IMG/VR virus record: IMGVR_UViG_3300032241_000435
Coordinates: 1 to 53,123 of that record
Length of the DNA: 53,123 nt
Source of the DNA: a virus
Lineage: Duplodnaviria > Caudoviricetes
Strand: one strand, 5' to 3'
Shown: positions 11,331 through 17,300 of the stretch, piece by piece
How positions within the stretch are numbered: position 1 is the first letter of the stretch
Layout of the letters: each line of letters opens with the position of its first letter
Notes under the pieces: model-generated
Database searches by the model: none
What the model was told of the DNA's origin: nothing
Seen by the model: only the letters and a program-made list of their open reading frames with translations
Translations under genes and position numbers: made by a program

Positions 11331-14300
11331 ATGCCAATACTTGAAGGTTTTAAACCTGTTGGTGAGTTATCAGGTACAACTCCAACGATTGTTCCAAATG
11401 ACAGCAATGCGCTTATGTCTGGTTTGTCGTCAGGCACAAGTAATCTTGAAGGATTGCTGTACGATGCTTTAGGTGCAGGTGCTGATGCCGCTAAACTTAA
11501 AGAACTTAAAGAGTGGGCCAACAAACAAGCTAAGCAAAAAGAATATGAATCTTTTGTAGCTAGTAGACCTGAACTTAGTAATATTGAAGATCAGTCTTTA
11601 GGTTCTTTACCTTCTTATGCTGCTTATCAACTTGGACAACAATTACCCCAAGTAGGCGGAGCTATGCTCTTAGGTGCAGCTATTCCTGAAGCTGTTGTTC
11701 CTGCTGCTGTATCTAGACTAGGTGCTGTTGCTCCTGATTTTCTCAGTGGCGGAGCTTTAAAAGCTGGTGCTGATTTTGCTACTAGACGTGCTGCTTTAGA
11801 AACGGGAACGGCTCTTGGTAAAAATGCCATGGGTTTGGGAGCGTTCAACGAAGTCCAATCTATTGGTTCTTTATACAATAGCGCCAAAGAAAATCCTGAT
11901 GAGGAAAATGCAGGACTTAAATCCTTAGCATTATCTCCAGCTCATGCCGCACTTGAAACTATTCCAGAAGTTCTTTTGGGTAAAGTCATTGGCGGTGAAC
12001 ATGGATTTACTGGAAACTTTATTCAGCGAGGTTTAAAAGCAGGTGCGTCTCAAGCTACTACGGGAGCTTTATCTGAATTAGGTCAAGGTGAACTAGAGAT
12101 GGCTGTTGGTAAGCCATTAACAGATGAAGAAAAATTTAGCCAAAGATTAAATTCTGGCGTTGCTGGTGGGCTTGTAGAAGGTATTTTGGGCGGCGCTGGC
12201 GGTATGTTGCGTAGTGGTAAAGCTGTACCTTTGATGAAAGGTACAAACGAGCAACTAACTACATCTGAATTAGACCAAGGCAATGGTCAAGGTGGCGGTA
12301 GACAGCCTGATACTGGAGACTCAGTACAACAAGCTTTAAACGATAATCTTGATCTTGGGTCTACTCCAACGGCTAGAGTTCAGTTACCAACGCTTAGCGC
12401 AACTCAGCAAGGGACTACAGATGTAGCTCAACAAGCGGCTGCAGCAGAACAACAGCAACAACAAGCTCAAGCAATTCAACAGCAACAACAAGCGGCTGCA
12501 CAAGCTCAAGCTGACCTAAAAGCTCGTCAAGATCAAGCACTCCAAACTTTTGGTGTGGCGAATAGTGTTGATGACACCAGAGGTAACTTGGTTGGTAAAC
12601 CCATCTTATCTAAGAGTACTTTAAGTGTTGTAGCTAATGCGTTGGAAAAAGAACACAGCGCTATGCCTGAAGATCAAAGAACAATTGCTAGCGCAATCAT
12701 TGCCGCTAATAATGCTTTGGCTACACCTGAAAAAACAAACCCATTGGTAAGCTTTAGCTTTAATGTGGCTGATCCCGCTAAAACAGCTGCGTCTGTACAG
12801 AATGCTTTCAAAGCGATTGCTAATGTAGCTACCAAATACCAAATCCATGATGCGACATCTGCTGAGGAAGCTGCTGCCCGTTTGGATGAACAATCTAAAT
12901 CTGCCAAAGCTGGGGAGTTAGATAAGATCAATGCTATCCATCAAGCCTTGACAGGCAAGGATACTTCTGGTTTCATTGCTAGTCAACAATCTAAAGGAGA
13001 GAAAAATGGAAACAAACAACCCCAACGTCAAGTGGAAGCAACTCCCAGGGTGGGAACAGTACCAGTCCAAGGAGGATCAGCTCAAGCAGCAAATGGAGGA
13101 GGGAATGTGGGGGGCGGAAACGTTCAACCCATCGGAGCAGGAAGTGTCCCTCAAGAACAGGCTGGACAGCAAACTGGACGAGCACCAGCAGAAGGAATAC
13201 GGAATAGCCCCAGTGGAGATGTGCTCGGATTGCACAATAACAATGCTGGGAATGGGACTGGGCAGGGGCAGATAAATGGACAAGCGACCCCAACATCTGG
13301 TGAGTCCACACAACCCAGCGTTCAAACCGTGGCTAAGCCAACTGTGGCAGAAGGCCAAGGAGCGAGAGTCTATGACCCAACAATCTCCTACTACGCAACA
13401 GACCTTAGCCACATCAAACCAGCCAGACGAGAAGAAATCAGAAATGATTTAATTCGAGCTATCCTTGCTCCAGATGTAGAACGAGCTGGTGTGATGACCC
13501 TTGCACAAAGGGTTGACATGGTAACCATGGCTTTGATCGATGGTGAGCCACAAGAAGACATTGCCAAACAACTTGGCGTGTCTAAAGCTGCAGTTCAAAA
13601 ACAATTGGAACGTCTAGGTATTATTGTTAAGCCAAGGCTAACACCTGCTCAACAAAGCGAAATCAATTCTATTGAACAACGTTTAGGCATTCCAGCAGGA
13701 ACACGCAATACGACTAAAGACCCATTTGCGGTGTCTAAAGCAATTACTACGCAACTTCCAGTTGAAGAAACTGCTGATTTAGTCCATCGTCTTGATGGCT
13801 TATATAAGTCTGCTTCCAAAGACTATGGTATTGAAACGCCTAAAGACGGTAAAGCGTTTGACGATATGTTGCTTGACGCAGGTGAAGCCTATCGTTCTGC
13901 TGAATTCCCTGACGGTATTGGTGCTGGAGAAATTGTTTACTTGTATAGCCACGACAAGAACGTTACCACTGAGCAATCTTTGGCTGACGAACTAGAGAAT
14001 GGTAGTGTATCAGGTGATCGTAGCAAGTTGCTTGCTGAAGAAATGCGTGGTCGTGGTGAAGGCAATGAAGGCCAGTCTATGGGAGTTATCTCTCAAGCTG
14101 GTGGTAGCCAAGGTGCAGTAGGGTCATTGAATAAAGAGTTCTTTAACCGCATCGAAAAGCTCACCAACGAGATGGAAGCATTGCCTCCAAAAGACCCACG
14201 CAGAACAGTGATCGAAGAAAAGATCAAAGAAGAGTGGGCTAAGTATGGTAAGAAACAAGCTGCTCTTGCCGAACAAGGTGAGTTAGAGGTCAACCAAACT

Positions 14301-17300
14301 GAAGAAGGTGAGGAAGAAAATGCCGTTCAAGAGCAAAGCGCAAATGAGGGAAATGTTCGCAAATCAACCCGAGGTGGCAAAAAAGTGGGCGAAGCTAACG
14401 CCCAATCCGAAAAACCTGCCCGAAAAAGTGAAGCCAAAACCAGCGTCAAAAAAGAAACCGTAACTAAGTACCCTGTAACTATCGAAGGCAAACCAGCCAC
14501 GGTTTCAATTATTCGTATGGTGGATGACCCAACAAAAGTTGATGCGGTCAGAATCCATGTGAACGGTGAAAAACTACCCAGCAGCTTAGGCAAACAAGGT
14601 GTAGTATCTGATGAGCAAATGCTCAAGAACTTAACGGACATAAACGTTATTGATGAAGCTGAGCCGAAAGAGGTAAAGTCTGACAATCAGTTGGCAGGCG
14701 AAGCATGGGATAAAGTTGCTGCTGAGTATCCTGAAGCTCCAAAATGGGCTGACTTAACCAAAGAACAACAGAAAACGTTTACGGATTTCGGCCCTAAAAA
14801 TTGGACTGCCCAAGATGTTCAAGGTGAGTTAGTTAAACTTGCAAAAGAAAAACAAACCCAACAGCAAGTTGAAAAACAAGAAACCGAAACCAAAGCCGTT
14901 GAAGTTGCTGAAGAAGTTTTACAGCCACATTTAGATAAATTAACCGAAGGCCAAACTACTCGTTTAGAAAACTTCTATAAAGCTAAACGTGGTTCATCTG
15001 AATTTATTGCTAAAGTTCGTGATGATGTTGTCACACTAGCAAACAAAGGTGCTGCGGCAATCAATGCTGCCATTAGAGATATTATTAGCTCGCTTGCCAA
15101 AGGTGTTTTGGCAGTATCTGTGGTGTTTAATCCTCAGTTCATGAGTGCTCCTAATTTTGTATTGCACCCAACAAAAACAATTACCACTACAACCGTAAGG
15201 CAAATCAAAGCTTCTATTCCTCGTGGAGCAGAATCTTTATCTGAGAGTGGTAAAACTGCTTTTGCAACATTATTTCCAGCATTACAAGATGACCTAAAAG
15301 CAAATAATAAATTTTTTGTTTTGGCTGATAAACCGACTTCAACAGTTTTTGTGTTTAATCCAAATGGAACTTTATTTGCCAAATCAAAAGTGCTTCTTGG
15401 TAAGGCTTATGGAGATTTTTATGTTGGCTCAACTGATTTTGTTAAAAACCGCATAACTCCTGCTGGTCTGTTTAAAATTAATGCTGAAAAAGGCAGTGAA
15501 GTTTACGATGGTAAAACTATCTATACGATTGGTAATGTAAAAGAAGGTTGGACTGCTGCTATTTTCCATACCGTTTACACCAAAGAAGCTGATGGCCCTG
15601 CTCGTGTAAATGCTTTAACCAAAGAAGGTGCTGGAGATTCAAGATACTCTCATGGTTGTATTAATGGTAACCCTGAGTTTATGAATAAACTTGCCAATAG
15701 TGGCATGATGAACGAAGCTCATATGTTTGTGGTTCCTGATAACGCTAAGTTATTGGATTCTTTTATTGCAAATAAAGTTTCAAATGAAGATTTAACAAGA
15801 GAAACTATTGAGCCAAAAACTGTTACTGAAACCAAGACAACTACTGTTCCTAATGCAACTTCTGTTGCTACCAATCAAATTGTTGGTAAAGAAGAAAACG
15901 TATTCAAACCAACTAAAAATTTAAAATTTGGTGAAAATACTACCAAGGGTGTAAAGAATCCTTATTCAGTTGCAGAACTCACTGATGAGATTAAAACATT
16001 TATTCGTGCAGATATTCTTGGACGCAAACTTAAAATTGTTGAGAATGTTCAACAATTACTTTTATCTCCAGATCGAGAAGAACAAATCGTTGGCGCTGCT
16101 ATGGGTGTCAATGGCGCTTATGGTGTAGCCACAAACGGCACAGCTTACTTGATTGCTAACCGTATCGAAAAAGGTACAGGTCGTGCCAAATTTATGCACG
16201 AAGTTGGAGCCCATTTGGGTTTAGAAAAACTTCTTCCAACGGCTATCTACAACAAACTTACAGAACAAATCGCAAGTTGGGCTAAGTCTGACAATGGTTC
16301 TGTTGAATCCACGTTAGCAGTTAAAGCTGCTGAACGTGTTATGAATGCCAATACACCTAAAGAAGATCAGCGTTCTGAACTGCTGGCTTACTTTATAGAA
16401 GAAGCAATGCAAGCAGGTATTGATCCAACTGCGGCAGGTAAAGAATCAGCAGCTTTATCGTCTTGGTTCCGTACATTGTGGGCGGCATTTAAAAATGCTG
16501 TTCGTAAACTTGGATTTAAAGAATCTAATCTAACTGCTCAAGATGTAGTTAACCTTGCTTTTGGTGCAGCTCGTTTAGAAATTACTGGCACATGGCATGG
16601 TACTGCTGCTAGCTTCCGTAAGTTTAACCACAAGTTTATGGGTTCTGGTGAAGGAGCTCAAGCTTATGGTTGGGGTACGTATCTTGCACAACGTGTGGGT
16701 ATTGCTCATGGTTATTGGAAAGCTGATGTGCAAAGGAAGACTTCGCCTGTTGAAGTTTTGTACAACGGTAAAGATATTGACCATATTGCTACAGACTTAT
16801 TTTTCAAAAGCAATCTTACTAAGGATGAAAAGGCTTTACTGAATATAGTTACAGAGCTTAGTTTGCAAGCAGGTGTTGGCAATACTGACTCAATTCGCAC
16901 CGTTCACTTAAATCTTGCTAAAAAGTTAAATAAAACAGCAGAAGAAAAATATGCTTCGGAATGGCTTGATAAACATTATTCTGATTTTTCTACAAAAAGT
17001 ACAGCCCCTCTTGGTAGTTTATTTCGTGTAGATGTTGGCGTTGGTCAAAATGATTTATTGGATTGGGATGAGCCCTTATCTAAACAACCTAATGTTTTAA
17101 AAGCAATTAAAAACAATCTTTCTTCTGATGTCATTAACACGCTAGAAGAAGAGTACAACGATGATTTAGATAATCTTACTGGAGAAGACTTTTATCGTGG
17201 ACTGCAAGCTTTAGAAAAAAGAGATGGATTAATAAGCGATCAGTTTAAAGATGTTGAAGATTACAACAAACGTTTAGGCAATAAAGGCGCAAAACAAATT

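Follow-up and report, generated by a model that had tools for sequence, protein, structure and literature searches.

How a short open reading frame (ORF) lying wholly inside a very long one should be read is the question raised by positions 14320-14463 of the virus record IMGVR_UViG_3300032241_000435 (Duplodnaviria; Caudoviricetes). The window considered here is this record at its full length of 53,123 bp, with an estimated completeness of 91%. Within it, 47 codons running from an ATG to a TAA are enclosed by a far longer frame, here called the giant gene, and are read in its +1 frame, the giant codons beginning 1 nt upstream of ATG 14320. Very probably, in our judgement, the short frame is a real protein-coding gene embedded in a giant virion-protein gene; it would be translated internally and would be older than the linker frame that runs across it.

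A first-pass annotation, made from the letters alone, had pointed to a basic 47-amino-acid (aa) ORF behind a purine-rich Shine-Dalgarno (SD) sequence; its coordinates, the GAGG upstream of the start and the basic character of the product (13 K+R versus 3 D+E; pI 10.47) were confirmed. The peptide reads MPFKSKAQMREMFANQPEVAKKWAKLTPNPKNLPEKVKPKPASKKKP, and the giant frame over it translates, as had also been noted, as a low-complexity linker, EEENAVQEQSANEGNVRKSTRGGKK... The length of the ORF is ordinary, since the two alternative plus-strand frames of the giant gene hold six ATG-ORFs of at least 47 codons, and 33 ORFs of at least 30 aa overlap positions 13000-16000. By itself the ORF is not beyond chance; conservation is what exceeds chance.

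The MPFKSKAQ family and its genomic settings

The small frame belongs to a large and old family of phage proteins whose members also exist free-standing. A word-indexed protein search returned 41 small relatives (41-81 aa, E<=0.01) in which M1, P2, F3, K4, S5, Q8, K31 and L33 are invariant. When a profile built from small relatives was run against 1.84 billion cluster representatives, 4208 of them matched at E<=1e-3 and 687 at E<=1e-10. Among the 150 best matches, 134 start with MPF or MPY at residue 1; 90 are no longer than 100 aa, 44 have 101-300 aa and 16 are longer. Relatives turn up on at least 440 viral contigs. On the window genome the profile scores 85.8 bits (E=2e-25), and the peptide carries all family hallmarks (MPFKS, Q8, P17, A20, an aromatic residue at 23, L33-P34 and the basic tail), to which the family definition adds a total length of about 40-60 aa.

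Among described families the closest is phrog_1375, of unknown function, which gave the one weak PHROGs match to the peptide (E=4.1e-4, 21.7 bits; PHROGs have no curated cut-off), aligning residues 3-29 with profile positions 17-43 of 70. Relatives of the peptide match the same profile down to E=1.5e-7 over positions 17-61. Like the window peptide, the members of phrog_1375 are small basic phage proteins, none with a known function; the profile differs in having some 16 additional N-terminal positions. In a language-model search the nearest named cluster was Pfam DUF3008 (PF11450; score 0.86, with the family on 15% of members), whose start we take to be a similar K-S-K-x-Q. Membership in DUF3008 was rejected, as hmmscan matched none of 95 family members at E<=1.

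Genomic context was sorted by script for 80 loci out of the at least 440 contigs and for two GenBank loci. Four settings were distinguished: embedded in a giant frame, stand-alone, at the N-terminus of longer proteins (113-361 aa among the sorted loci), and inside or overlapping mid-sized frames, which overlap the small gene at the same frame offset as the giants do. Embedding in an open frame of more than 1000 codons accounts for 21 cases, the window included, and in every one of them the giant frame lies 1 nt upstream of the ATG. Embedded copies occur in the uncultured podovirus genome MW202828 and in cultured Flavobacterium elemo phages (vB_FspP_elemo, on Flavobacterium sp. BAL314, with 68 records); in the two GenBank records inspected, one of each, the coding sequence of the giant is the only annotation at this place. 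The earlier expectation that gene callers would miss the gene holds only in part, as the 41 small relatives had been called by metagenome pipelines.

Stand-alone copies lie within a few kb of genes for TerL, portal, major capsid or internal virion proteins in 5 of 7 annotated loci, which agrees with the suggestion in the first-pass annotation that small basic proteins of this kind reside in head and packaging clusters. Two stand-alone loci share the order TerL, an ORF of about 640 aa (portal-sized, with no PHROG match), an ORF of 82-91 aa, the small gene, and ORFs of 211-274 aa and 327-339 aa. The last of these occupies the capsid position, with a major-head PHROG match in locus L074 only.

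In the longer forms the module is fused to a LigD phosphoesterase plus ligase, to a lysozyme, and to many unknown, often low-complexity regions. A Pfam scan of 44 longer proteins identified only LigD_N/ligase (one protein), DUF5661 (two) and a weak AAA match (one), and a PHROGs scan of the longer proteins returned phrog_1375 itself and one weak match to another family of unknown function. In P0077 (344 aa) and P0081 (1477 aa) the module is internal and in frame, directly after an InPase domain (PF18823), and P0081 retains the M-P-F.

Among the mid-sized frames, L058:2656-2775 and L075:1929-2054 hold an MPFKS gene embedded about 51 codons into an acidic protein of some 405-413 aa whose frame reads ...EDAVQEQSTDEVPV...; the overlap is thus not confined to giant genes. 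In L054, L055, L060 and L070 (e.g. L070:10001-10126) the frame at the same offset is open across the small gene into a conserved stretch of about 75 codons (...GIGYRRLAKMFNLRRDTV...), which may contain a helix-turn-helix; here the arrangement is a same-offset overlap and not full embedding in a giant gene.

Constraint on two overlapping frames

Intactness was assessed in an independent sample of 38 giants chosen by their C-terminal domain alone, 5 of which come from contigs in the first set. An ATG-started +1 ORF of the family, 46-57 codons long, is present in 27 of the 29 giants with a complete 5' end. Among the nine 5'-truncated giants six carry it, and the relevant upstream part is missing in the other three. 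All 33 embedded copies are intact, with no internal stop and no lost start. Together with the numerous stand-alone homologues, this bears out the proposal of a genuinely dual-coded gene.

The small frame is more strongly constrained than the giant frame, and both frames are maintained. Entropy at small-frame codon positions 1, 2 and 3 is 0.82, 0.68 and 1.08 in 20 distinct embedded copies, compared with 0.77, 0.73 and 1.52 in 39 stand-alone copies. Since position 2 of the small frame is the wobble base of the giant frame, the giant wobble is the least variable position in embedded copies. An alignment of ten related giants displays this as an island of conservation, in which entropy at giant position 3 is 0.21-0.26 in the overlap versus 1.1-1.65 in the flanks. 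Inside the overlap giant position 3 varies less than giant position 1, whereas in the flanks it is the most variable; the stretches flanking the island cannot be aligned among the ten giants. The check on codon positions suggested in the first-pass annotation thus comes out in favour of the small frame.

Substitutions tell the same story. A minimum spanning tree that joins 34 distinct cores without gaps carries 399 differences. Of these, 213 leave the small protein unchanged but alter the giant one (1842 such single changes being possible), as against 58 of the reverse kind (2573 possible). The odds ratio is 5.1 with Fisher p=4e-33, a value that, like the binomial and Wilcoxon p-values of this analysis, is too small because related sequences are treated as independent. 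Amino-acid identity is 71.6% in the small frame versus 53.2% in the giant frame, with the small frame ahead in 555 of the 561 pairs. Between MW202828 and an elemo phage, the most distant pair, 32 of 42 small-frame residues are identical but only 19 of 42 giant-frame residues. Ser5 alternates between AGC and TCG, which alters the giant-frame residues. Across lineages that have no DNA similarity outside the island, embedded copies show only about 55-70% identity, and the effect is consistent in direction and size across these lineages.

The giant frame leaves its own mark on the shared bases. None of 45 embedded copies has a giant-frame stop, while 24 stand-alone copies have on average 4.0 stops in the same frame. 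The codon for Phe3 is TTC in all 45 embedded copies, since TTT would make a TAA in the giant frame; among the 24 stand-alone copies 14 use TTC and 10 use TTT. The recurrent NAVQ[EK]Q[SG] motif of the giant proteins, in turn, is dictated by MPFKSKAQM.

Between distant giants the dual-coded island is sometimes the sole region of similarity (L001/L002 and L016/L022). That it acts as a recombination joint is a speculation.

Probable internal initiation and its alternatives

Translation of the embedded gene by internal initiation on the giant mRNA is what we infer from its start region. An SD-like site, defined as a 4-mer of AGGAGG at -17 to -5, precedes 28 of 42 distinct embedded copies, compared with a background of 6.5% for positions in the same giant genes. 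It occurs in all three giant codon phases, which indicates selection on the bases and not on giant residues. The 60 nt around the start are weakly folded relative to the rest of each giant gene (median percentile 0.11; 40 of 42 copies below 0.5), and the ATG is present in all 21 embedded copies among the sorted loci as well as in the 33 of the independent sample. We propose that ribosomes would initiate at ATG 14320 on the mRNA of the giant gene, in view of the conserved ATG, of the weakly folded, A-rich start and, in those phages whose presumed hosts rely on such sites, of an SD-like sequence. In the window genome and in three other genomes that are 93-100% complete, the embedded copy is the sole copy of the family.

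The linker frame would be the younger partner, the giant gene reading across an older small gene and, in the window, across a second one at 13006-13275. The idea put forward in the first-pass annotation, that a growing polyvalent protein engulfed a pre-existing gene, fits the wide stand-alone distribution of the family and the fast-evolving linker, but among the loci compared no stand-alone copy was found with homologues of the giant halves on either side.

Several observations weigh against this account and have to be set beside it. With respect to the proposed order of events, tblastn of the giant against 82 loci, which could have revealed an ancestral fusion of the module to the C-terminal part or flanking giant halves, returned only relatives of the embedded type, and none of 84 longer proteins carrying the module had a blastp match to any of 20 giants at E<=1e-3. 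With respect to initiation, 14 of the 42 embedded copies have no strict SD 4-mer; for six of them the enclosing giant gene has 32-40% G+C (AT-rich and Bacteroidota-like, one of them in a Flavobacterium phage), and most of the others have GGGG runs of the AAGGGGAAG type. The weak folding may simply reflect an A-rich, lysine-coding composition. Finally, the two complete giants that have no embedded ORF are the most distant ones (32% identity), and the family is missing altogether from one 98%-complete genome, whose giant is likewise distant; the embedded gene is therefore not indispensable.

Of the competing explanations, programmed ribosomal frameshifting, by which the +1 frame would be reached without a start of its own, appears very unlikely. 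In one form, ribosomes in the giant frame would shift by +1 and end early, yielding an N-terminal fragment with the module as its tail; in another, ribosomes starting at ATG 14320 would slip by -1 in the Lys-rich tail and join the module to the C-terminal two-thirds of the giant. Frameshifting has in its favour that other phages have long proteins beginning with the module and that the window has two in-frame A_AAA_AAG heptamers (codons 21 and 44), the -1 frame of the small frame being the giant frame; an upstream SD-like site is, moreover, a feature of known bacterial frameshift sites. Yet an in-frame A_AAA_AAR is found in 2 of 45 distinct embedded copies, any X_XXY_YYZ in 11 of 45, and A_AAA_AAR is commoner in stand-alone copies (6 of 24). 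For want of a conserved slippery heptamer, a dnaX-type -1 frameshift fusing the module to the C-terminal giant was rejected. A start of its own is favoured by the ATG kept in every embedded copy and by the family's beginning at residue 1; the sequence immediately 5' of the ATG is variable except for the SD, and the small frame is always closed by a stop.

It is also highly improbable that the embedded copy is a relic, recently silenced when the giant gene overran it and intact for lack of time. This explanation can draw on the dispensability of the family in some relatives and on the point, which also counts against our account, that translation of the embedded copy is deduced from sequence features. 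It is hard to reconcile with 55-70% identity across lineages that share no outside DNA similarity, among which not one of 33 copies has a stop or a lost start, with purifying selection on the small frame, with an SD kept in varying codon phase, and with the embedded copy being the only one in four near-complete genomes.

Least credible, and largely refuted, is the view that conservation belongs to the giant frame or to a nucleic-acid element with a role in recombination, packaging or regulation, the +1 ORF being a mere shadow: a recurrent NAVQ/DAVQ-EQS motif in the giant frame and an island conserved at the DNA level, at times the sole similarity between distant giants, speak for it, but that motif is set base for base by MPFKSKAQM, with TTC and AGC forced by avoidance of TAA, free-standing genes keep the small-frame sequence despite about four stops in the giant-equivalent frame, and the fivefold excess of small-frame-silent changes, the Ser codon-family switches that keep the small protein while altering the giant one, and the higher small-frame identity in nearly all pairs all run the other way.

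The giant gene, possible function and implications

The embedded gene is not the only one of its kind in the giant gene (Table 1). As a control, the other alternative-frame ORFs of the giant were searched against 126 loci with low-complexity filtering on. One of them, ORF-B, matched 41 loci, with 31 distinct sequences, all in the +1 frame of the giant. Its ATG is followed within a few codons by a conserved C-K-Q-L-P-G-W stretch, and a stop closes it after a basic terminus. Changes silent in ORF-B and non-silent in the giant number 217 (of 2247 possible) versus 77 of the reverse kind (of 3424 possible), an odds ratio of 4.3; amino-acid identity is 71.2% in ORF-B versus 53.4% in the giant frame, and giant position 3 is again the least variable in the overlap (entropy 0.40). 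ORF-B has no PHROG or Pfam family match, and its predicted structure is poor (predicted local distance difference test (pLDDT) score 60, from a 12-sequence alignment). In all 58 viral contigs that carry it ORF-B is embedded and never free, and in 42 of them the same giant frame also holds the MPFKS gene 1.0-1.7 kb downstream. Both embedded genes are positioned beneath low-complexity linker segments of the giant protein, and the second one suggests that the arrangement is not a one-off.

Four other alternative-frame ORFs matched only 2-4 loci with filtering, three of them having 3-4 close relatives. One, a 58-codon ATG-ORF at 13276-13452 (+), shares the +1 frame of ORF-B and begins on the very next base behind its stop. 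With filtering this ORF matches 4 loci, without filtering 10, and it overlies an apparent folded domain of the giant. This ORF and the other three were rejected as genes on account of the few loci and are likely shadows of giant-frame conservation. On the opposite strand, a 119-codon TTG-ORF at 14327-14686 (-) overlaps the embedded gene and is probably a by-product of the constrained sequence.

Table 1. Features of the giant gene and of the frames embedded in it (positions in the window).
Feature	Positions	Strand	Basis
Probable embedded gene, MPFKSKAQ-family microprotein (phrog_1375-like), 47 aa	14320..14463	+	+1 frame; family matches, selection and intactness
Giant virion/ejection-type (polyvalent-like) gene, 3119 codons	11331..20690	+	Uninterrupted ORF, YkuD, PHROG matches
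Shine-Dalgarno-like GAGG	14310..14313	+	Six bases 5' of ATG 14320, in a purine-rich stretch
Predicted helical hairpin, residues 6-15 and 17-26	14335..14397	+	AlphaFold2; preceded by the invariant MPFKS
Lys/Pro-rich basic C-terminal tail, residues 36-47	14425..14460	+	Alignments: sequence and length variable, always basic among relatives
Second embedded gene ORF-B, 89 aa	13006..13275	+	+1 frame, beneath a G/N/Q-rich linker of the giant; selection signature

The giant protein matches YkuD (Pfam) at aa 1329-1456 with 24.0 bits (cut-off 23.4), and its C-terminal aa 2382-3102 match phrog_10089 ('DarB-like antirestriction') and phrog_11358, both made up of giant phage proteins. Genes for an internal virion protein, a tail fibre and a virion structural protein lie upstream of it; those for TerL, portal and major capsid protein are found at 42.7-49 kb, the replication module is on the opposite strand, and an Rz-like spanin is located at 2190-2807. 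The giant gene is a mosaic, as its closest relative (in the comparison with L003 and others; 87-92% identity) is devoid of aa 1172-1531, the YkuD domain included. A DNA search of positions 13800-15000 against cultured phages found no similarity.

Iyer et al. (2017; PMC5512222) regard polyvalent proteins with an InPase domain as probably carried in the virion; in the main text of that paper a term search finds no occurrence of 'overlapping' or 'frameshift'. The giant of the window may likewise be a multi-domain protein and is encoded beside virion genes, and in two polyvalent-type proteins the MPFKSKAQ module follows InPase. It differs in that only YkuD passes its cut-off, ART-PolyVal (Pfam) remaining below (14.5 bits; cut-off 31.2), and no Pfam LPD domain covers the module.

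For the product, AlphaFold2 (from a 95-sequence alignment) predicts a helical hairpin followed by an extended basic tail, with a mean pLDDT of 81 and values of 87-93 over the first 20 residues. Structural neighbours in BFVD are uncharacterised and come from uncultured Caudovirales and from phages of Mycobacterium and Streptomyces. The invariant N-terminus is nearly always residue 1, which suggests that it needs to be free; removal of the methionine would probably leave an N-terminal proline. Strong conservation across phages with unrelated structural proteins points to a partner that all of them share, such as DNA, and not to one peculiar to each phage. Based on the basic tail, the location in head modules and the fusions to DNA-end and cell-wall enzymes and to virion-packaged polyvalent domains, we favour, tentatively and as a possibility rather than a probability, a small protein associated with DNA or with the virion. 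It would form a helical hairpin whose N-terminus has to be free, would end in the basic tail, and may accompany the genome or ejected proteins. In other phages the same module may serve as an N-terminal docking or DNA-binding unit of larger injected proteins.

This functional proposal has to reckon with the 47-aa peptide having no Pfam match at E<=0.1, with solved structures yielding only a chance-level profile match to poly(A) polymerase (E=0.03) and nothing below E=8 in a Foldseek search of the PDB, and with C-terminal extensions of fused forms that mostly have no known identity. It also has to accommodate gp48 of the cultured Streptomyces phage FlowerPower (L127:4001-4219), a 72-aa homologue with an MPYKS start and an AKK-rich, histone-like tail, which lies not in a head module but between the peptidoglycan-binding-like 'peptidase' gp47 and the holin gp49. 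Alternatively, the microprotein may be an accessory of head assembly or have a part in lysis.

Embedded phage genes are already known as a kind. Summer et al. are said to have described in 2007 how lambda Rz1 lies inside Rz, and how spanin genes reportedly occur in embedded, overlapped and separate architectures in different phages. Likewise, the small gene described here is placed wholly inside a larger one on the same strand and in the +1 frame, has its own start and ribosome-binding site and is under purifying selection, and its family is embedded, partly overlapping or separate in different phages. By contrast, neither the MPFKSKAQ family nor the giant gene is related to spanins, the giant carries two embedded genes, conservation is stronger in its embedded frame, which is probably also the older one, and joint action of the products is not indicated. 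The unusual features are the polarity of the overlap, the presence of two such genes per giant, and a hidden lineage of a large family. In overlapping genes the newer one usually lies inside the older. Here conservation and wide distribution mark the small frame, and the giant frame probably arrived later. Neither the MPFKSKAQ family, its embedding in giant genes nor ORF-B was found to be reported in open-access papers and bioRxiv, where the first eight residues of the peptide (MPFKSKAQ) gave no match either.

The finding exposes a gap in annotation, since a family of thousands of clusters has a whole lineage of copies that are hidden because they sit inside giant genes. For the giant proteins it implies that the NAVQ/DAVQ-[EK]QS 'motif' and the island around it are shadows of another gene, which misleads analyses of domains, of linkers and of dN/dS (the ratio of non-synonymous to synonymous substitution rates). 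Loss of the start codon need not alter the giant protein, as T14321C (ATG to ACG) keeps the Asn; in all embedded copies the T of the ATG is the giant wobble base, and ACG there preserves Asn or Asp. In the window, G14387A likewise makes a stop of Trp23 and leaves the giant Val as it is. The arrangement is carried by cultured Flavobacterium phages.

A wider proposal, which we consider rather doubtful at present, is that the giant genes of widespread podophage-like viruses, the cultured Flavobacterium elemo phages among them, are palimpsests. Their fast-evolving linkers would overlie two or more small genes in each giant, either older than the linkers or co-evolving with them, whose microproteins partner the injected giant or the genome, MPFKSKAQ being a near-universal DNA-binding or virion-targeting unit. 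If so, the module would need a free N-terminus and would bind DNA (or DNA ends) or target the virion, and the 130-nt island would also be a recombination joint for the shuffling of giant-gene modules. Phages of at least three bacterial phyla would then employ the module by itself or as a leader segment on injected ligase/LigD phosphoesterase, lysozyme and InPase proteins.

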